Part shown: in pieces, positions 1 through 6,950 of the stretch
Numbering within the stretch: position 1 is the stretch's first letter
How the letters are laid out: each line of letters begins with the position of its first letter
Virus record (IMG/VR): IMGVR_UViG_3300029851_000103
Origin: a virus
Lineage: Duplodnaviria; Heunggongvirae; Uroviricota; Caudoviricetes
Strand: one strand, 5' to 3'
Length of the DNA: 6,950 nt
Notes under the pieces: model-generated
Seen by the model: the letters and a program-made list of their open reading frames with translations, nothing else
The model's database searches: none
What the model was told of the DNA's origin: nothing
Program-made: the position numbers and the translations under genes

Positions 1-224
1 CCGCCATAACGACCACTTTCCAGATCGTTCACTTCCACTTTGTTTTTCAGCTTATTATCAACTTCAGTTTTTGTGTATCTGGTGCTGATATCCTGCTTTG
101 CACTGGCCATATCAGTCTGAAGCGTTGATACTTTTCCGTTAATAGAGGAAATATCTTCCTTTGCTTTACTAACATCTCCCTTCAGCGTGGTGATGTCTCC
201 CGGAATTACTGTTGATGTAGCCAT
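1..224 (-). CDS. Hypothetical protein, N-terminal 74 codons only (runs off left edge). Begins MATSTVIPGDITTLKGDVSKAKEDISSINGKVSTLQTDMASAKQDIS...; predicted coiled-coil-like, possibly tail-fibre-associated.
   Basis: Hand translation of the minus strand from ATG at 222..224 is open to position 2 with no stop. A GAGG Shine-Dalgarno sits 7 nt upstream and overlaps the TGA stop of ORF93; only 9 nt separate the two genes. Not in the ORF track, presumably because it lacks a stop inside the window. Family not recognised. Confidence 0.45.
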   Translation of the reverse strand, partial: MATSTVIPGDITTLKGDVSKAKEDISSINGKVSTLQTDMASAKQDISTRYTKTEVDNKLKNKVEVNDLESGRYG

Positions 225-233
225 TTCTCTACC

Positions 234-515
234 TCACATCCAGCCACGAAGTTGATGCTCAACAGCAACCGCGTATTCATCGAATAATGACGATATTTGC
301 GTATCCTTAATAATGCGCACGTTTACAAAATATCCATCTTCCTTAACACATACCGGTTCGCCATCTTCAGTCAGCTCTCCGGTTTCTTTGTACACGTTAC
401 CTATCACATCAATCAGAATATCATCCTGCATCGACTCGTCATTATAATAGCCAATACTTCCCATAAAGGCCGAAAAGTCGGCCCTGTCGGCAAATTTGAG
501 TGTTAAATCTTTCAT
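234..515 (-). CDS. Small acidic hypothetical protein (93 aa), translationally coupled to the side tail fibre gene. Function unknown; candidate fibre-associated accessory protein or chaperone.
   Basis: ORF-track ORF 234..515. Its ATG (plus-strand cat 513..515) overlaps the stf stop (plus-strand tta 515..517) as TAATG on the coding strand. By my count 19 Asp+Glu versus 8 Lys+Arg (net about -11), one Cys. No resemblance to lambda Tfa that I can recognise. Confidence 0.55.
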   Translation of the reverse strand: MKDLTLKFADRADFSAFMGSIGYYNDESMQDDILIDVIGNVYKETGELTEDGEPVCVKEDGYFVNVRIIKDTQISSLFDEYAVAVEHQLRGWM

Positions 516-2917
516 TAGATTGACTCCCCCATCTGAGCATCAGTCAATGCCTTGTGCCAAATACGCAGATTTCGAACGTGTCCAAATAGGTGACGGTTGC
601 CGGATGATGATTGACCACCAATATTAATGAAGCCTCCTGTATATTTGTGTTTTTTATAAGGAGAAACTACCTTAGCACCAATATTACCGTTAACCACAAC
701 ACACAATTCTCGACTTTCTGTGAATCTAAAGCCGATAATGCTTTTTCTCTCTGGTCGTTCTATAACGCTTTTATATTCTATTTTAGTGCCTTTACCATTT
801 GTAATGATTGCGCGTGCTCCCAAAGATGTATACCCCAAATACATATAACTTTCATCTGCAATTTCAGTTGTATCTCCCGTAGTGGAAATATTAAGAATAC
901 GTGCGCTACCTTCTTTGTTTGGCGATTCATCCCAATTGGTATTAACTTCTGCTAATGAACTAATAGCGGGATTGCACCAATTTAGAGAAATGGGGACCGT
1001 TACAATATCGCTGGCGCGTGTTACAGGGGATGCGCCTGTTATAATAAACGATGAAGCGCATGCCCCACCTTCAACTTGAGGGGTCGCAATATAAATATAA
1101 TCATCCGCGCCAGTGCCCACTCCTTTTGCCGGGGCATACTGAACCATTCCACCTATCATATTTTCTGTATCAAGTGCCTTAATTGTCGCCTCAAAAAAGA
1201 TCCATTTGCTTGCTTCATCTTTAACAGCCCTTGCAGTAATGCGATTAGCGGCACCACCCGTCTTATCAATAGATAAATCTGTCGTATTTAAGTAAGCGTC
1301 ACCTAAGAATGTGTAGGTAGAACCATCATAGTTTTCAAATCGTAATCGGCATCTTAAATTTGGAGTGCCACTTTGCACCCTGCATGATATGGTTACATAC
1401 TTTTCTCCGCCTGTTACATCAAAACCTTTACTGCCGGAAACGGTTACTATGTTAATCGCTGAAATTTGCCCTACCATTTCTGGTTTTAATGTAAATTTTG
1501 CGTACTGGAATCCGAAATCATCTACACCTGATGCACTTAAGATCATATTTGACGACTTGTTCCATTTAGTCGGATTTGTTGAATTGATTAGCAGGTTAGT
1601 TCTTTGCCCCTCAATAAGCAGGCCATCACGTTCAAATCGTGGCTCGTCAATGGCAGCCTCTGTCAGCACACCAGATTTATTAATGTAAGTTGCTTTCGAT
1701 GCGCGTTTAAACTTTACAATCTTGTCGCCAGGCATTGTTATTTCATCGTCGCCAATAACAATTTTTTTATATGATGGCGAAAAGCCCGTAATCATATCCA
1801 GTGAATCATTAAACGGTATCCACACATCGGGCAACGGCTGCAAAACTTGTTTATACGGCTCCGCTGCCTGGCTTGCATACTCTCTGGCTGCGTCTTCACT
1901 TGCTTTAGCTGCTGTCTGGCTTGCTGCCGATGCTTGCGCCGAGTTCGCCGCCGCAGTCTCGCTCGCCTTTGCGTTGGTTTCACTGGTTTTTGCTGCTTTT
2001 TGACTGTTAGCTGATGCAGTGGCAGAAGCAGCCGCCGCGCTTGCAGAACTGGCTGCGGCACTCTCGCTTTGGGCCGCTGCATCCTGACTGCTTTTCGCCG
2101 CAGTTTCACTGGCTTTGGCATTCGTTTCGCTGGTCTTCGCTGCCGTCTGGCTGGACTTTGCGTTAGTTTCACTCGTCTTCGCAGCTTTCTGGCTGTTAGC
2201 CGCAGCAGTTGCTGATCCAGCTGCTGAAGTCGCAGAACCGGCTGCCGCGCTCTCGCTTTGGGCTGCTGCAACCTGGCTGTTTTTTGCCGCAGTTTCACTG
2301 GCTTTGGCATTCGTTTCGCTGGTTTTCGCTGCCGTCTGGCTGGACTTTGCGTTGGTTTCGCTCGTCTTTGCGGCTGTCTCGCTATTTTTCGCGTTGGTTT
2401 CTGATTTTTTGGCTGCTGTCGCGGAGTTTGCCGATGCAGTCTTTGAGGTCGCTGCCGCCTGTGCACTATTAGCTGCATTCGTTTCTGAGGTTTTCGCCGC
2501 GTTCTTCGATGATGCCGCTGCAGTTTCGGATTTCTTTGCCGCCGCTGCGCTCTGAGAGGCGGCTTCAGCGTTGCGTGCCGCTTCTTCCACCATTTCCTCA
2601 AAACGACGCAATGCCTCCGGCATGACATCATCTTCCGTCATGGCACCGAGAAAATCATTCAGCGTCCCCGGCTTAGAATCTTCATACACGGTGATGGTCC
2701 CGGCATGTGAAGGCGAAAAACCTTCAACCAGCAGGATAACGCTGTACTGGCCATACTCAACATCCATACTGTAACGCCCGGCTTCATCCGGATTTTCTGA
2801 GGCCAGCGTGTTCACTACCACCGTGGTGCTGTTACGTTTTGCTTTCAGCTGGATTGAGCAGTTCTGTACCGGTTTTCCTGTGCCGTCTTTCAGTACACCT
2901 GAAATCTTTACTGCCAT
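515..2917 (-). CDS. stf: Side tail fibre protein (lambda Stf-like N-terminus; Ala/Ser/Thr/Lys-rich repeat shaft; C-terminal LamG/ConA-like lectin-type receptor-binding domain).
   Basis: 800-aa ORF. N-terminus MAVKISGVLKDGTGKPVQNC...GRYSMDVEYGQYSVIL...HAGTITVYED matches the lambda side-tail-fibre N-terminal domain as I recall it. Residues ~110-330 are repetitive (KTSETNAKSSQTAAKTSETNAKASETAAK...). C-terminus ...HLFGHVRNLRIWHKALTDAQMGESI resembles the terminal strand signature of LamG-like jelly-roll domains. A G-rich SD (GGGGGG) lies just upstream of the ATG. Confidence 0.88.
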   Translation of the reverse strand: MAVKISGVLKDGTGKPVQNCSIQLKAKRNSTTVVVNTLASENPDEAGRYSMDVEYGQYSVILLVEGFSPSHAGTITVYEDSKPGTLNDFLGAMTEDDVMPEALRRFEEMVEEAARNAEAASQSAAAAKKSETAAASSKNAAKTSETNAANSAQAAATSKTASANSATAAKKSETNAKNSETAAKTSETNAKSSQTAAKTSETNAKASETAAKNSQVAAAQSESAAAGSATSAAGSATAAANSQKAAKTSETNAKSSQTAAKTSETNAKASETAAKSSQDAAAQSESAAASSASAAAASATASANSQKAAKTSETNAKASETAAANSAQASAASQTAAKASEDAAREYASQAAEPYKQVLQPLPDVWIPFNDSLDMITGFSPSYKKIVIGDDEITMPGDKIVKFKRASKATYINKSGVLTEAAIDEPRFERDGLLIEGQRTNLLINSTNPTKWNKSSNMILSASGVDDFGFQYAKFTLKPEMVGQISAINIVTVSGSKGFDVTGGEKYVTISCRVQSGTPNLRCRLRFENYDGSTYTFLGDAYLNTTDLSIDKTGGAANRITARAVKDEASKWIFFEATIKALDTENMIGGMVQYAPAKGVGTGADDYIYIATPQVEGGACASSFIITGASPVTRASDIVTVPISLNWCNPAISSLAEVNTNWDESPNKEGSARILNISTTGDTTEIADESYMYLGYTSLGARAIITNGKGTKIEYKSVIERPERKSIIGFRFTESRELCVVVNGNIGAKVVSPYKKHKYTGGFINIGGQSSSGNRHLFGHVRNLRIWHKALTDAQMGESI
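1912..2478 (-). repeat. Intragenic tandem repeat, unit 189 bp (63 codons), about 3 copies: two near-identical over their first ~80-100 bp plus a more degenerate upstream copy. Encodes the Ala/Ser/Thr/Lys-rich shaft of Stf.
   Basis: The plus-strand string cagtttcactggctttggcattcgtttcgctgg occurs at 2101 and again at 2290 (offset 189). The protein shows two 63-aa units each starting KTSETNAKSSQTAAKTSETNAKASETAAK. and ending ANSQKAA. Region 1912..2100 aligns more loosely. Confidence 0.8.
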
Positions 2918-2928
2918 ATTCCCCCCAC

Positions 2929-2955
2929 AAAAAAGCCCACCTGAACCGGCGGGCT
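2929..2955 (-). terminator. Putative intrinsic (rho-independent) terminator downstream of lom, immediately upstream of the stf start.
   Basis: Minus-strand transcript: 8-bp stem (AGCCCGCC / GGUGGGCU, including one G-U wobble that exists only on the minus-strand RNA), 6-nt loop GGUUCA, then a run of 6 U (plus-strand A-run 2929..2934). Lies 26 nt after the lom stop. Confidence 0.45.
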
Positions 2956-2981: not shown

Positions 2982-3581
2982 TCAGAATTTATAACCGACA
3001 CCCACGATGAAACCGTCAGTGCGCCAGTCACCACTGCCAGAACCTTCATAAGCAATATCAATGGCCACGGATTCGGTCGGGTTAAACTGCACGCCAGCCC
3101 CCCACGCCAGAGACGTGTTGCTGTGGCGACCGTCATCACTTCCGGTCAGCACATCGTGCGTTTTCCCCTTGTTGTCAGTTACGCGAAGGTAATCCCCGGA
3201 AAAAGTCGAAACACGGCTGTAAGCCATACCCGCCATCGCATACGCGCTGAACCATTCATTCACGCGCACAGACGGCCCCGCCATCACGCTGAACCAGCGG
3301 TTACGCACGGAATCTTCATGCCAGCTGGTATCGCTGTAACGGGTCAGCTGGCGATTCTTGTCTCCTGCATAGCTGAATGACGTCACCAGCCCCAGCGTAT
3401 CCGTAAACTCATAACGGTATTTCACGTTAATCCCGTTCAGATCATCACTGCCGGGAACGTTGGTCCGGGCATGAAGATACCCCGCGCTCAGCGTGGACTG
3501 ATGTTCAGATGCCCATGCAGGCGCACCGGATACGGCCAGACAAATGGCTGCGGACAAAATGGCGGCATAAAGTTTACGCAT
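2982..3581 (-). CDS. lom: Lom outer-membrane protein (Ail/Lom/OmpX/PagC family beta-barrel), lambda lom homologue.
   Basis: 199-aa ORF. N-terminal signal peptide MRKLYAAILSAAICLAVSGAPAWA followed by SEHQ. Ends in ...GFIVGVGYKF with terminal aromatic residue typical of outer-membrane beta-barrels. Sequence closely matches lambda Lom as I recall it. GAGAGG SD 5 nt upstream of ATG. Position directly after J matches lambda gene order. Confidence 0.92.
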   Translation of the reverse strand: MRKLYAAILSAAICLAVSGAPAWASEHQSTLSAGYLHARTNVPGSDDLNGINVKYRYEFTDTLGLVTSFSYAGDKNRQLTRYSDTSWHEDSVRNRWFSVMAGPSVRVNEWFSAYAMAGMAYSRVSTFSGDYLRVTDNKGKTHDVLTGSDDGRHSNTSLAWGAGVQFNPTESVAIDIAYEGSGSGDWRTDGFIVGVGYKF

Positions 3582-3602: not shown

Positions 3603-3631
3603 AATAAAAAAGGCACCATTTCTGGTGCCCT
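3603..3631 (-). terminator. Intrinsic terminator between J and lom.
   Basis: Minus-strand transcript: perfect 7-bp stem GGCACCA/UGGUGCC (plus strand 3612..3618 and 3623..3629), extendable by a G-U pair, GAAA tetraloop, followed by UUUUUU. Begins about 20 nt after the J stop codon. Confidence 0.55.
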
Positions 3632-3650
3632 TATATGGGTTATAACAATT

Positions 3651-6600
3651 TCAACGAATACTGATGCCGGAAGCGGCTTTTTTGGTCACAATCACCGTAC
3701 AGTCGGTGATATTACCTGCCCACTGATTGCCTTTATGGAAAACCTTAAACTCCAGAGTGACGCTTCCCCTGCCACTCGGCATATCAATAACCGCACTGTA
3801 GCTACCGGGAATGGCCCCTTTAGTTTCTCTGGATGCGATTAATACACCGTTTTTGCGAACTTCAAAACCATAACCCGTGTATCTTGTACCTCCCGGGTTA
3901 TTACCACTTCCCGGATCGCTATACGCTATTCCGTTAAAGATAATGGGCGGAATAATGATTTGACGGTCAAAGTTATGATCATCGCTGATGGTGACTGTAA
4001 CCGTCCCGTTTGGTGTTTCCGTGTTACCCCACGTACCAGCCTGTTTCGGGAATGATTTGGATACAGCTTTAACGAAGTCACCTCTGACCTGAGTCGCCTC
4101 CAGCATGCCCTTAATCGTACAGTTTTCATTTACCGTGACATTGTTGAGCGTCCCGGCGTTCGCATTCACTCTGCCACTGATATCCGCATTTTTAGCGGTC
4201 AGCTTTCCGTCTGATGTCAGGGAAAATGCCGGTGGATTTCCACCACTGGTAATGGTCGGGGCCGTCAGGCGCTTCAGGAACACGTCGTTCATAAATATCT
4301 GATTGCCCTGCGCCACAAACATCGGCGTTTCATTCCCGTTTGCCGGGTCAATAAACGCGATACGGTTAGCGGCAACCAGAAACTGGCTCAGCTTGCCTTC
4401 TTCCGTGTCCTCCATGCTGAGGCCAATACCCGCGACATAATGTTTGCCGTCTTTGGTCTGCTCAATTTTGACGCCCCACATGGCATTCCACTTATCGTTA
4501 GCGTCCTGCCACTCTTTCGAAAACTCCTCCAGTCTGCTGGCGTTATCCTCCGTCAGCTCGACTTTTTCCAGCAGCTCCTTGCCGAGATGGGATTCGGTTA
4601 TCTGGCCTTTGAAAAAATCCAGGTAACCTTCCGCATCATCGCTCGCCTGACCGACAGCCTCCACGAATGCCGATTTGCCAACGGTGTTCACACTGCGGAT
4701 ATAAAAGTAATAATCATGGCCCGGTTTGATATTGATACTGGCGGCTATCCAGTACAGCGCCGTACCAAGATAGCGGGCTGTGGTTTCAACCTGCCTGATA
4801 TCGGTAATCCGCTTTTCCGAGAACCAGAACTCAAACTGTACCGTCGGGTCATAAACGGCAAGATGCGGCGTGGCGGTTATCTGAAAATAGCCCGGCGTCA
4901 GCTCAATCCTCGACGGTGCTGCCGGTGCGGCAATCCGGAACGATACCGACGCCGGATCGCCCTGCTGCCCCCACGCATTTACCGCCCGGACTGTCAGTCT
5001 GTAGTTCCCCAGCGCCAGTTGCGTGAAGCGGTATGTGGTTTCCGTCGTCCGGGCCGTGCTGACCAGCCGCTCACTGCCGTCATCCGCTGTTACGGTCAGA
5101 CGGAGCAGGAAGCTCACGCCCTTCACCACCTTCGGCGTGTCCCAGCGCGCCAGCACCTGATATTCCCCGCTGTCTGCGGTGACTTCGGCGGTCAGGTGCT
5201 GCACCGCTGGCGGCGTGACACCATTCACCGTGCCGCTCTGGTCGCCGTCAAAGTGCGCCCCGTTATCCACGATGGCTTCTTTTTCCGGTACATGCTGCAC
5301 GGCAGTGATGGCATACGTGCCGTCATCGTTCTCACGGATACTCACACAGCGGAACAGGCGCTGACGCAACGTCGGCAACTTCAGCCCCCACACACTGTAT
5401 TCTGCAACGCCGTCAGGAACCCGGTTCACTTTCACCTTAAGTCCGTCGGTGACGGACTGAACCTCCACGCTGACCGGATTACCACTTCCGTCAACCAGGC
5501 TTATCAGCGTGGTACCGGAGGATGGCAGCGTGATTTCACGGTCGAGCGTCAGCGTCCGGGTCTGGCTGTTCACCGCCAGCACGCGACCACCGGTGCTGAT
5601 ACCGGCATAGTCATCATCGCAGATTTCAATGACATCGCCCGGTACATGGCGAAGCCCTTCAGCACCCACGCTGAAATCCACGGTCTGCGTCTCCAGCAGT
5701 TCAGTTTTAATCAGCCACAGCCCGGCGCGGTGTGCCTGCCCCCGGCTGGTACAGCCAAAGGCATCCATCTTCGTGACATTACGACCGTAACGGACAATGG
5801 CCTGCGTATCTTCAACAAGCTCTGTCGCCGTCTCCCAGCCGTTGTTCGGGTCAATCCAGTTCACCTCAACGGCATTATGGCGGTCCTTCAGGGCGCTGAA
5901 GCTGTAGCGGAACGGCGCGCCATCATCCGGCATCACCACATTACTGCGGTTATAGGTCCACACCTTATCTGATGGTCGGTCCTGCACGAACGTCAGCGTC
6001 TGCCCGTTCCATACCGGCATACAGCGCATCGCCGAGCAGAAATCACTGAGCACATCCCACGCCTTACGCTGCGTGGTCAGCCAGGCATTACAGGTGATGC
6101 GCGGCTCCGTGCCGCCAAAACCGTCCGGCACTGACTGGTCGCAGTACTGGCCGATGACATACAGCGCCCATTTATCCACATCCGCCGCACCAAGACGTTT
6201 CCCCATGCCGTAGCGCGGGTGGGTCAGCATATCCCACAGACACCAGGCCGGGTTGTTGCTGTATGCCGGCTTAAACGTTCCGTCCCAGATACCGCTGTAT
6301 TGCCGCGTCTGCGGGTTATAGTTCGACGGCACCTGCAGAATGCGCCCGCGAAGATGATAATTACGGCTCACCTGCTGGCTGCCGAACTGCTCCGAGTCCA
6401 CCTGCACGCCGACCAGTGCCGTGTTCGGGTAGCACTGTTTCACATCGATGATTTCGGTGTATGACGACCAGAGCGTTTTGTTCTGCAGCTGGTCTGTGGT
6501 GCTGTCCGGCGTCATCCTGCGCATCCGGATATTAAACGGGCGCGGCGGCAGGTTACCCACCACCACCGAGGCCAGATACTGCGAGGTGGTTTTGCCCTTA

Positions 6601-6869
6601 ATGGTGATGTCTTTTTCCGTCACCCAGCCACCGTTACGTTGTATCTGAACCAGCAGACGGACTTCCGACGGATTCCTGTCACCCTTTGAGGTGGTTTCCA
6701 CCAGTGCCTGTACACCGAAGGTAAAGCGCAGACGGTCGATGTTTGCAGACGTAATGGTGCGGGTGATCGGCGTGTCATATTTCACTTCCGTACCCAGCAC
6801 CGTCTCGGAGCCGGAGGATTCAAACCCCTCCGGCGGTGTCTGCTCCTGCTCACCGGCACGGAACACCAC
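3651..6869 (-). CDS. J: Host specificity protein J (central tail fibre / tip attachment protein), 5'-truncated. J homology continues to 6875, where it abuts the IS629-like end; the first ~65 codons are not in this window. The C-terminal ~150 aa diverge from lambda J.
   Basis: 1072-aa ORF-track ORF. Translation ...[49 protein letters not shown]... onward matches lambda J from about residue 66 with only scattered substitutions over ~1000 aa. The apparent start at 6867..6869 is an internal GTG (Val in lambda J), not a native start. J-like codons (gtc acg) run to 6870..6875 and are directly followed by the IS terminal sequence. Confidence 0.9.
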
Positions 6870-6875
6870 CGTGAC

Positions 6876-6950
6876 TGAACCGCCCCGGGAATCCTGGAGA
6901 CTAAACTTCCTGAGAAAGAGGTAAACAGGATGACTAAAAATACTCGTTTT
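6876..6950 (+). mobile_element. IS3-family insertion sequence, IS629-like (IS629/IS1203/IS3411 group): left terminal inverted repeat and 5' end. The element continues beyond the window.
   Basis: Sequence TGAACCGCCCCGGGAATCCTGGAGACTAAACTTCCTGAGAAAGAGGTAAACAGG ATG ACT AAA AAT ACT CGT TTT. It starts with the TG dinucleotide typical of IS3-family ends, has an AAGAGG SD before an ATG at 6930, and the encoded N-terminus MTKNTRF matches my recollection of IS629 OrfA. J homology stops abruptly at 6875. Confidence 0.72.
6930..6950 (+). CDS. IS629-like transposase OrfA, first 7 codons only (MTKNTRF...).
   Basis: ATG at 6930..6932 preceded by AAGAGG SD with ~7 nt spacing, located ~55 nt inside the IS terminal repeat as in IS3-family elements. 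Confidence 0.6.

Follow-up and report, generated by a model that had tools for sequence, protein, structure and literature searches.

A small acidic protein of PHROG 1361 encoded behind lectin-headed tail fibre genes is probably a fibre accessory protein

We examined a 6,950-nucleotide stretch of viral DNA (IMG/VR record IMGVR_UViG_3300029851_000103; hereafter, the window). Its minus strand encodes the distal portion of a lambda-like tail operon from an E. coli prophage, and 3 kb of it recur at 98% identity in many E. coli chromosomes, where RefSeq names the three products prophage tail fiber N-terminal domain-containing protein, hypothetical protein, and tail fiber domain-containing protein. 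The features of the locus are as follows:

3–224, minus strand: 5' part of the distal fibre gene, 74 codons, cut by the window end
180–224, minus strand: conserved N-terminal docking peptide of the distal fibre, MATSTVIPGDITTLK
225–236, minus strand: junction between the small gene and the distal fibre gene, TGAGGTAGAGAAATG
234–515, minus strand: gene for a 93-aa acidic protein, a PHROG 1361 member (ORF and translation)
513–517, minus strand: TAATG overlap, in which the Stf-like gene ends (TAA) and the small gene begins (ATG) with one base in common (read on the reverse complement)
515–2917, minus strand: Stf-like side-tail-fibre gene, 800 aa (PF08400, PHROG 1419)
518–652, minus strand: last 45 aa of the fibre head, with the LamG-type end motif IGGQ..G.RHLFGHVRNLRIWHKALTDAQM (alignment)
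518–1837, minus strand: lectin-like head, aa 361–800 of the Stf-like protein (homologous heads in other lineages)
524–530, minus strand: Shine-Dalgarno-like GGGGGAG inside the 3' end of the Stf-like gene (sequence GGGGGAGTCAATCTAATG)
1013–1618, minus strand: GTA head-spike-fibre domain NF048003, aa 434–635 (NCBIfam E = 1.8e-16, above the curated cut-off)
2982–3581, minus strand: lom
3651 to beyond 6869, minus strand: 3' part of J

The ORF at 234–515 translates into a protein of 93 aa (MKDLTLKF...LRGWM) with 19 acidic (11 D and 8 E) and 8 basic (5 K and 3 R) side chains, a net charge of −11, and a pI of 4.19. The TAATG overlap couples its translation to that of the Stf-like gene; length, charge, and overlap were confirmed as described in an earlier note on this DNA. 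ATGA or TAATG overlaps are annotated likewise in PhiR46_1, KarlJaspers, VogelGryff, IrisVonRoten, nimi, phage 21, and rolling. The GGGGGAG sequence precedes the ATG of the small gene by 8 nt. At the other end, the TGA stop codon (234–236) overlaps the GAGG Shine-Dalgarno sequence of the next gene (232–235), whose ATG (224–222) starts 9 nt past the small ORF. We found no promoter- or terminator-like site on the same strand between the stf, small, and distal genes. The median dN/dS of the small gene was 0.20 (39 alleles), and the gene is under purifying selection. Its product contains no hydrophobic segment (the top 19-aa Kyte–Doolittle window scored 0.49) and, judging from its sequence, looks soluble and cytoplasmic.

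The protein matched PHROG 1361 ("unknown function") with an E-value of 2.7e-44, residues 1–93 aligning with profile positions 1–92 of 92, and all of the 23 diverse relatives tested were also full-length members. Homologues in nimi and rolling bear the pVOG label VOG7707; both are catalogue clusters without an assigned function. This match, the many homologues, and the low dN/dS establish the small ORF as a real, conserved phage gene. There were at least 225 homologues in the protein collection, and tblastn matched 181 phage records. The family is nevertheless small in extent: an exhaustive HMMER scan of 1.84 billion representatives returned just 48 clusters at 50% identity, nearly all of which were stand-alone proteins of about 36–150 aa. 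Two long matches (1797 and 2928 aa) covered merely one 25–30-aa stretch, repeatedly. The possibility that the ORF is a fragment of, or is fused to, a larger gene was rejected because its homologues stand alone. Single-sequence and profile queries of Pfam, NCBIfam, and PDB sequences found no relative, and the protein and 22 relatives gave zero Pfam matches at E ≤ 1, in agreement with the earlier note, which had not recognized the family. Members share the signature M-x-D-x-x-L-K-F-x-D ... D-x-I-G ... G-[YWF]-[FH]-V-N-V-R-V ... P-x-R-V-W-A, the last part being C-terminal. The family medians for net charge and pI are −11 and 4.2, respectively, indicating that the acidity is conserved.

AlphaFold2 predicted a confident, compact alpha/beta domain of the order b-a-a-b-b-b-b-a, with a pLDDT of 83 from 25 sequences and 90 from 51 sequences. 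The predicted elements are b1 (2–8), a1 (11–20), a2 (27–32), b2 (33–39), b3 (42–48), b4 (54–58), b5 (62–68), and a3 (75–81), followed by a C-terminal tail. This tail carries a conserved L-R-x-W motif (L/V-R-x-W), including the nearly invariant R90 and W92, and was modelled with the lowest confidence, which is typical of a segment that becomes ordered on a partner. A structure search with the model of pLDDT 90 gave no significant match, and the BFVD matches were solely uncharacterised proteins of ~90–100 aa from uncultured phages. The model did not resemble known DNA mimics.

The upstream gene encodes a fibre whose residues 1–131 match phage_tail_N (PF08400; Pfam E = 1.2e-68). PHROG 1419 matches this protein over its full length, and its N-terminal 94 aa match the Stf chain of Ur-lambda (PDB 9e7m). 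An Ala/Ser/Thr-rich shaft, encoded by 189-bp tandem repeats, leads to the C-terminal ~440 residues, which end in the LamG-type motif IGGQ..G.RHLFGHVRNLRIWHKALTD. The head is 35–72% identical to those of seven other phage lineages, whose fibres are homologous to the window Stf over the C-terminal ~450 residues only. Its last 45 residues have a net charge of +4, and the corresponding residues are net basic (+2 to +4) in 13 of 14 lineages. The same head type forms the end of the IrisVonRoten proximal fibre Gp22, where it was called a 'galectin-like' domain (PMC11990801). As D69, it was also seen by low-resolution cryo-EM on the EmilHeitz fibre RBP_10, in a paper that makes no mention of extra density (PMC12143355; map EMD-51868). 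The founding member of NF048003, the head-spike fibre of RcGTA (Rcc01080), binds capsular polysaccharide, and it bound capsule when made alone in E. coli (PMC10218006). The gene adjoining rcc01080 in RcGTA is no homologue of the small gene. Two RcGTA candidates were rejected: GhsA is the head-spike base protein and is encoded upstream of ghsB, and rcc01081 is a capsule gene. Pfam searches detected neither Peptidase_S74 nor Caudo_TAP in the Stf-like and small proteins, so this head-bearing fibre has no other recognizable chaperone. Caudo_TAP was also absent from the product of the next gene, which upholds the earlier note's statement that no Tfa is recognizable here.

We investigated the gene neighbourhoods of the family in eight phage families or lineages and in eight to nine distant metagenomic or MAG contigs. 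At every locus inspected, the gene directly in front of the homologue encoded a protein with the same LamG/lectin-like head at its end. In the opened phage records, it starts at, or no more than ~13 nt from, the stop codon of the head gene. These records were the N15-like lambdoid phage PhiR46_1, phage 21, KarlJaspers (Drexlerviridae, T1-like), rolling (Dhillonvirus), VogelGryff (Seuratvirus, 9g-like), IrisVonRoten and FFH1 (T5-like), and nimi and JeffSchatz (rV5-like). rV5 itself is not among 36 records that carry a homologue.

The distant loci (L095 and L097–L104) comprise seven metagenomic members and two alpha- and beta-proteobacterial MAG members, the latter being the only loci that a scan of genome contigs returned. 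An HMM built from this head type matched the upstream protein at all distant loci (E = 1e-49 to 6e-6), and these products end in G-x-I-K-[KR]-x-A-x-Y-P-x-R-L-x-x-x-x-L-Q-x-L-T. The gene downstream of the small gene was not conserved across them. One distant locus, L098, is ambiguous in that it alone has the small gene upstream of a giant protein, yet still behind a head-type protein, which in this case is a 408-aa head by itself. Across phage records, the head was found in 216 (198 at full length), against 181 for the small protein. In FFH1, the one tblastn-negative record that we checked, the small gene had been missed, yet a divergent member occupied the expected place (HMM E = 2e-16).

The earlier note had favoured a fibre-associated role from gene position and had named LamG-type fibres in particular; the neighbourhoods bear out both points, and the homology and neighbourhood surveys yielded no homologue in a non-phage or fibre-free context. 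Given the universal linkage to one head type, together with the translational coupling, the soluble acidic nature of the protein, and the lack of another chaperone for the fibre, we assign it an accessory role at the fibre head with a probability of roughly 0.85. More broadly, a role as a fibre accessory protein is almost certain, and the family lacks both an assigned function and a known structural relative.

A function unrelated to the fibre, such as that of a DNA mimic, an anti-defence protein, or a lysogenic-conversion moron in the late operon, is highly improbable. The earlier note had raised the first two, and the protein is indeed small and highly acidic like mimics of the Ocr and ArdA types. 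Morons also gather downstream of lambdoid fibre genes, as exemplified by the PHROG 1443 membrane protein and by sitABCD of phage 21. However, the small gene is absolutely linked to one head type in virulent and temperate phages of unrelated families and hosts. It resides strictly inside the fibre operon, between two fibre genes and with overlapping codons, and among the loci examined, it was never found outside phage tail modules.

We then compared sequence variation across 75 E. coli prophage loci, which contained 47 distinct heads, 27 small proteins, and 20 distal N-termini. The mean pairwise identities were as follows:

Head, first ~90 residues: 0.83–0.96
Head, middle: 0.27–0.69
Head, last ~40 residues: 0.73–0.80
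Small protein, throughout: 0.92–0.98
Distal fibre, first 20 residues: 0.89
Distal fibre, beyond residue 20: 0.35–0.47

Two hypervariable receptor-binding modules thus enclose a conserved cassette, with the small protein at its middle. The protein does not vary in step with the hypervariable part of the head, which presumably binds the receptor. Since it does not track this part, its partner surface is expected to be the conserved scaffold of the head rather than the tip. The earlier note had proposed a chaperone or a tip-masking factor for the LamG-type fibre: the association with the fibre head holds, whereas the tip as the target is disfavoured by the absence of co-variation across the 75 loci.

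Masking of the tip is accordingly improbable in our assessment. In that scenario, the acidic protein would shield the glycan-binding face of the head in the producing cell and be shed later, which would stop new fibres from adhering to polysaccharide precursors or debris of the host itself. A mask of the binding site should follow the specificity loops, and the small protein does not. Moreover, fibres assemble in the cytoplasm, on the other side of the inner membrane from the site of O-antigen and capsule assembly. Transient chaperone 'caps' are an existing concept for Alteromonas phage fibres (PMC10579305), and masking would also fit the linkage to a lectin-like, polysaccharide-binding head, the stoichiometric co-expression, and the conserved strong acidity, which could mimic acidic glycans. 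However, our structure search found no similarity between the model and intramolecular-chaperone-like caps.

The third gene of the window, which the earlier note had overlooked, encodes a distal fibre. Its complete relative in PhiR46_1 is a 346-aa protein with a C-terminal Peptidase_S74 intramolecular chaperone domain. In PhiR46_1, KarlJaspers, VogelGryff, and IrisVonRoten, the gene after the small one likewise encodes a fibre (221–574 aa) that ends in a Peptidase_S74 domain, and none of these four has a tail-attachment domain. The distal fibres are mutually unrelated apart from their first ~15 residues, which form the motif M-x-T-x-T-x-I-P-x-D-I-T-x-L-[KQ]. The partial gene of the window has this docking motif, and so do distal fibres from lambdoid, Drexlerviridae, Dhillonvirus, Queuovirinae, and T5-like phages. 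The motif was detected nowhere but immediately behind the small gene, at 85 of 94 loci in a first scan and at two more with a looser pattern. A tblastn search with the IrisVonRoten N-terminus covered the peptide only in phages possessing the module, and in rolling, an unannotated ORF right after the small gene starts with the motif, LQ replacing LK. Conversely, the motif was absent from the complete phage 21 genome, the rV5-like loci, and all distant loci, and the distal fibre is thus missing beside the small gene in these phages. Head plus small protein is the ancestral, universal configuration, and head, small protein, and docking-peptide fibre together are the configuration of most enterobacterial siphoviruses. 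Because the pair of head and small gene persists where there is no distal fibre, the head is the ancestral partner of the small protein.

The distal gene and its docking peptide make a structural joint a serious rival, although we consider it somewhat unlikely. As an adaptor, the small protein would stay on the virion and form or complete the socket for the N-terminal peptide of the distal fibre. The resulting fibre would be branched or have two segments, and the small protein would work much like gp35, the 'knee' that joins the half-fibres of T4. The gene order of proximal fibre, small protein, and distal fibre, with both junctions tightly coupled, fits such a joint, as do the missing tail-attachment domain of the distal fibres and the restriction of their common peptide to the position after the small gene. 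The conserved block also matches the gene junctions, consisting of the last ~40 aa of Stf, the small protein, and the first 20 aa of the distal fibre. The BASEL study already places Gp24 on Gp22 in IrisVonRoten, having inferred that this distal fibre hangs on the proximal one (PMC11990801); IrisVonRoten requires its distal fibre solely on K-12 with restored O16. On the other hand, the published AlphaFold models dock the distal fibre onto the proximal fibre without the small protein, which was not considered there (PMC11990801). We found no fused form, no virion-proteome support, and no solved PDB chain matching the small protein; AKFV33 proteomics, the only study for this arrangement, covered four large gel bands alone. 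Above all, the small protein is equally conserved in phage 21, rV5-like phages, and distant members, where there is no distal fibre, so a joint cannot be its ancestral or sole role.

For this last reason, we prefer to regard the small protein as a trans-acting assembly or capping factor that recognizes the conserved head scaffold, a tentative choice that we hold at slightly less than even odds. It would act as a dedicated accessory factor of lectin-headed tail fibres, with translational coupling presumably causing it to be made in step with the fibre. It may bind the conserved scaffold of the head and not the variable receptor-binding loops, and to this putative contact the head would contribute its conserved, basic C-terminal strands and the small protein its conserved L/V-R-x-W tail. 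Acting as a chaperone, it could maintain the solubility of the C-terminal beta-sandwich head and its correct assembly where the trimeric shaft ends. The head-bearing fibre has no self-cleaving intramolecular chaperone of its own, unlike other fibres, including the adjoining distal fibre. Some observations count against the assembly-factor reading. The RcGTA relative shows that at least the NF048003 sub-domain folds without such a partner, and there is no co-variation with the tip of the kind known from Tfa and gp38. The cassette of Stf end, small protein, and distal N-terminal peptide fits a permanent structural joint equally well.

Assembly and joining could also be combined, in that the head, the small protein, and the 15-residue distal peptide would form a universal plug-and-socket joint, an idea that we consider doubtful. 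In this scheme, a conserved socket on the head would first be capped by the small protein, which the N-terminal strand of the distal fibre would then complement or displace in a step resembling donor-strand exchange. If so, lambdoid, T1-like, Dhillonvirus, 9g-like, and T5-like phages could swap whole distal fibres by recombination within the conserved cassette.

The family is already catalogued as PHROG 1361 and VOG7707; its function, structure, or any discussion of it was not found in the literature searched. This covered BASEL 1 and 2, the DT57C genetics and cryo-EM literature, RBPseg, the Eligo Stf chimeras, and the E. coli HS phages, none of which characterises the small protein, and we came across no virion proteome, structure, or genetics concerning it. 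Likewise, this literature appears not to describe the strict head linkage, the fact that the protein does not co-vary with the tip, the universal occurrence of the docking peptide, or the conserved cassette. Lectin-headed lateral fibres set which O-antigen or capsule types can be reached by many coliphages and Salmonella phages, among them lambda-like prophages and T1-like, T5-like, and rV5-like therapeutic candidates. The accompanying small protein is left out of the fibre models in current structural atlases and engineering work. If it is needed for head assembly or for the distal joint, it must be co-transferred in fibre swaps and in recombinant expression, and the cassette from the Stf end to the docking peptide would offer host-range engineering a natural splice point that is independent of phage family.

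Among known systems, the small protein belongs with the fibre accessory proteins that are encoded behind the fibre gene. One assembly chaperone, gpG/gpGT of the tail, was rejected on position: the gpG/gpGT genes, which involve a programmed frameshift, follow the gene for the major tail protein and precede the tape-measure gene, whereas the small gene of the window follows J, lom, and stf. Proteins of the Tfa type, including P2 G and Mu U (Caudo_TAP, PF02413), are alike in being encoded directly downstream of, and coupled to, a side-tail-fibre gene, in presumably acting on the C-terminal part of the fibre, and in travelling with that part between unrelated phages. The small protein differs in having neither Caudo_TAP nor sequence similarity to them, in being half their size, and in its predicted alpha/beta fold, which has no known relative. 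It also differs in its independence from the fibre tip, with which the classical trans chaperones Tfa and gp38 co-vary. In PhiR46_1, the nearest complete relative, we found no Tfa further downstream.

The fibres of the Alteromonas phages V22 and A5 and their small downstream partners are, as here, a host-recognition module common to morphologically unrelated phages, and a transient cap role was proposed for these trans-acting chaperones (PMC10579305). Their chaperones resemble S74-type domains, whereas the model of the small protein gave no such match, having neither an S74/IMC domain (PF13884) nor an IMC-like fold, and their fibre tips differ in type from the lectin-like head. The partner of the small protein has the NF048003 domain in common with RcGTA Rcc01080, and it is the lectin-like beta-sandwich head (D69) of the BASEL fibres, a module that binds polysaccharide; that work describes the fibre only. 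Mimics such as Ocr and ArdA have the strong negative charge in common with the small protein, but its gene is always in the tail-fibre operon and not in an early or accessory region.

In their arrangement, the three genes recall the segmented or branched fibres of T4 (gp34-gp35-gp36/37), DT57C (LtfA/LtfB), and phiEco32 (gp14/gp15), in which, as here, a tail-bound proximal fibre carries a second fibre without a tail-attachment domain (PMC4728585), the second fibre docks by a short conserved N-terminus, and gene order equals assembly order. T4, DT57C, and phiEco32 have no homologous or equivalent small protein: T4 gp35 is an unrelated protein of 372 aa, and LtfA and LtfB both end in S74, with no small intervening protein described. 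The small protein, by contrast, also occurs where there is no distal fibre at all. If the role proposed here is correct, the small protein would represent a further chaperone or adaptor fold, one that is not related to those of the Tfa, gp38, gp57A, and S74 types.

We examined the distal (second) fibre gene, encoded after the small gene (the acidic 93-aa ORF of PHROG 1361), of which the window contains the following parts:

Window 3-224, minus strand: 5' start of the distal fibre gene
Window 180-224, minus strand: N-terminal peptide of the distal fibre, MATSTVIPGDITTLK

The same peptide of about 15 aa forms the N-terminus of S74-type fibres in lambdoid, T1-like, Dhillonvirus, 9g-like, and T5-like phages. 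The fibres that it heads are unrelated to one another in their remaining sequence, and their genes are always positioned immediately 3' of the small gene. This peptide is probably a universal docking peptide of distal fibres.

Distal fibre genes of three other phages were mislabelled or lacked annotation:

KarlJaspers (locus L002), 6270-6947: bas06_0035, annotated 'putative lateral tail fiber chaperone'
VogelGryff (locus L003), 6267-7433: bas25_0024, annotated 'putative lateral tail fiber chaperone'
Rolling (Dhillonvirus, MN850575.1; locus L007), 5270-6102: unannotated ORF at the record end, starting MVTKTNIPADITALQ...

Despite the chaperone label, bas06_0035 and bas25_0024 are short distal fibres; each has the docking peptide as well as a Peptidase_S74 domain, and a conserved ATG lies 4 codons downstream of their annotated GTG starts. 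In rolling, 12 nt separate the small gene from the start of the unannotated ORF, which is still open where the 'complete genome' record stops. The distal fibre gene of this phage was apparently missed, or split by the start point of the record.

In and upstream of the gene for the side-tail-fibre protein Stf, we noted the following features:

About nt 1720-1780: segment of ~19 residues, SYKKIVIGDDEITMPGDKIV, at aa ~20-40 of the lectin-like Stf head, compared with the rV5-like phage nimi and the distant metagenomic locus L098
Window 1949-2383 (also 2109-2195 and 2345-2401): 189-bp tandem repeats of the stf shaft region, 2.3 copies, 83% matches
Window 1792-2631, minus strand: spurious ORF, 279 aa
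Window 2115-2555, plus strand: spurious ORF, 146 aa
Window 2934-2955, minus strand: terminator-like hairpin just 3' of lom, upstream of stf
Window 3609-3632, minus strand: terminator-like hairpin just 3' of J, upstream of stf

The ~19-residue segment at the head start was found in lineages having a docking-peptide fibre and also in phage 21, and the rV5-like and L098 heads are without it; we regard it as a candidate for a docking site within Stf itself. The 189-bp shaft repeats encode Ala/Ser/Thr-rich repeats (KTSETNAKSSQTAA...), and long spurious ORFs in other frames arise from them. The number of terminator-like hairpins in the window did not exceed that in shuffled sequence.

Two distant loci showed other arrangements. 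In L098 (4778-12243), from a metagenomic siphovirus, three proteins are encoded just upstream of a 2137-aa protein with weak EF-hand matches: a stand-alone head-type protein (408 aa), a family member (80 aa), and a coiled-coil protein (67 aa). Tail assembly chaperones are the usual occupants of this position. In L095 (2485-8666), the lectin-type head occurs in each of two adjacent proteins, of 1167 and 664 aa; a family member follows only the first, and an unrelated 120-aa protein follows the second.

Several records named as Campylobacter (MG065676, MG065654, MG065666, and MG065655) or Listeria phages (OR848352 and OR847733) contain stretches with 100% identity to the fibre modules of E. coli rV5-like or T5-like phages, and are likely mislabelled or contaminated entries. 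Among chromosomes, that of E. coli SCU-172 (NZ_CP054353.1, 2509526-2513305) matched the window best; an IS1A element breaks up this match within the fibre region.

In both phage 21 and PhiR46_1, the fibre module ends with a gene for a predicted membrane protein of 95-97 aa (PHROG 1443, unknown function):

Phage 21 (locus L006), 5292-5585: PHROG 1443 gene
PhiR46_1 (locus L001), 7375-7662: PHROG 1443 gene

In both phages, it is possibly a moron or superinfection-exclusion gene; in phage 21, it lies directly 3' of the small gene and adjoins sitABCD transporter genes. Among complete relatives of the window's tail module, PhiR46_1 (PV340565.1) is the closest. It encodes ParA/ParB and telR at 7711-10334, and is an N15-like linear plasmid-prophage, not a lambdoid phage that integrates. 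Both lifestyles share the J-lom-stf-small-distal module.
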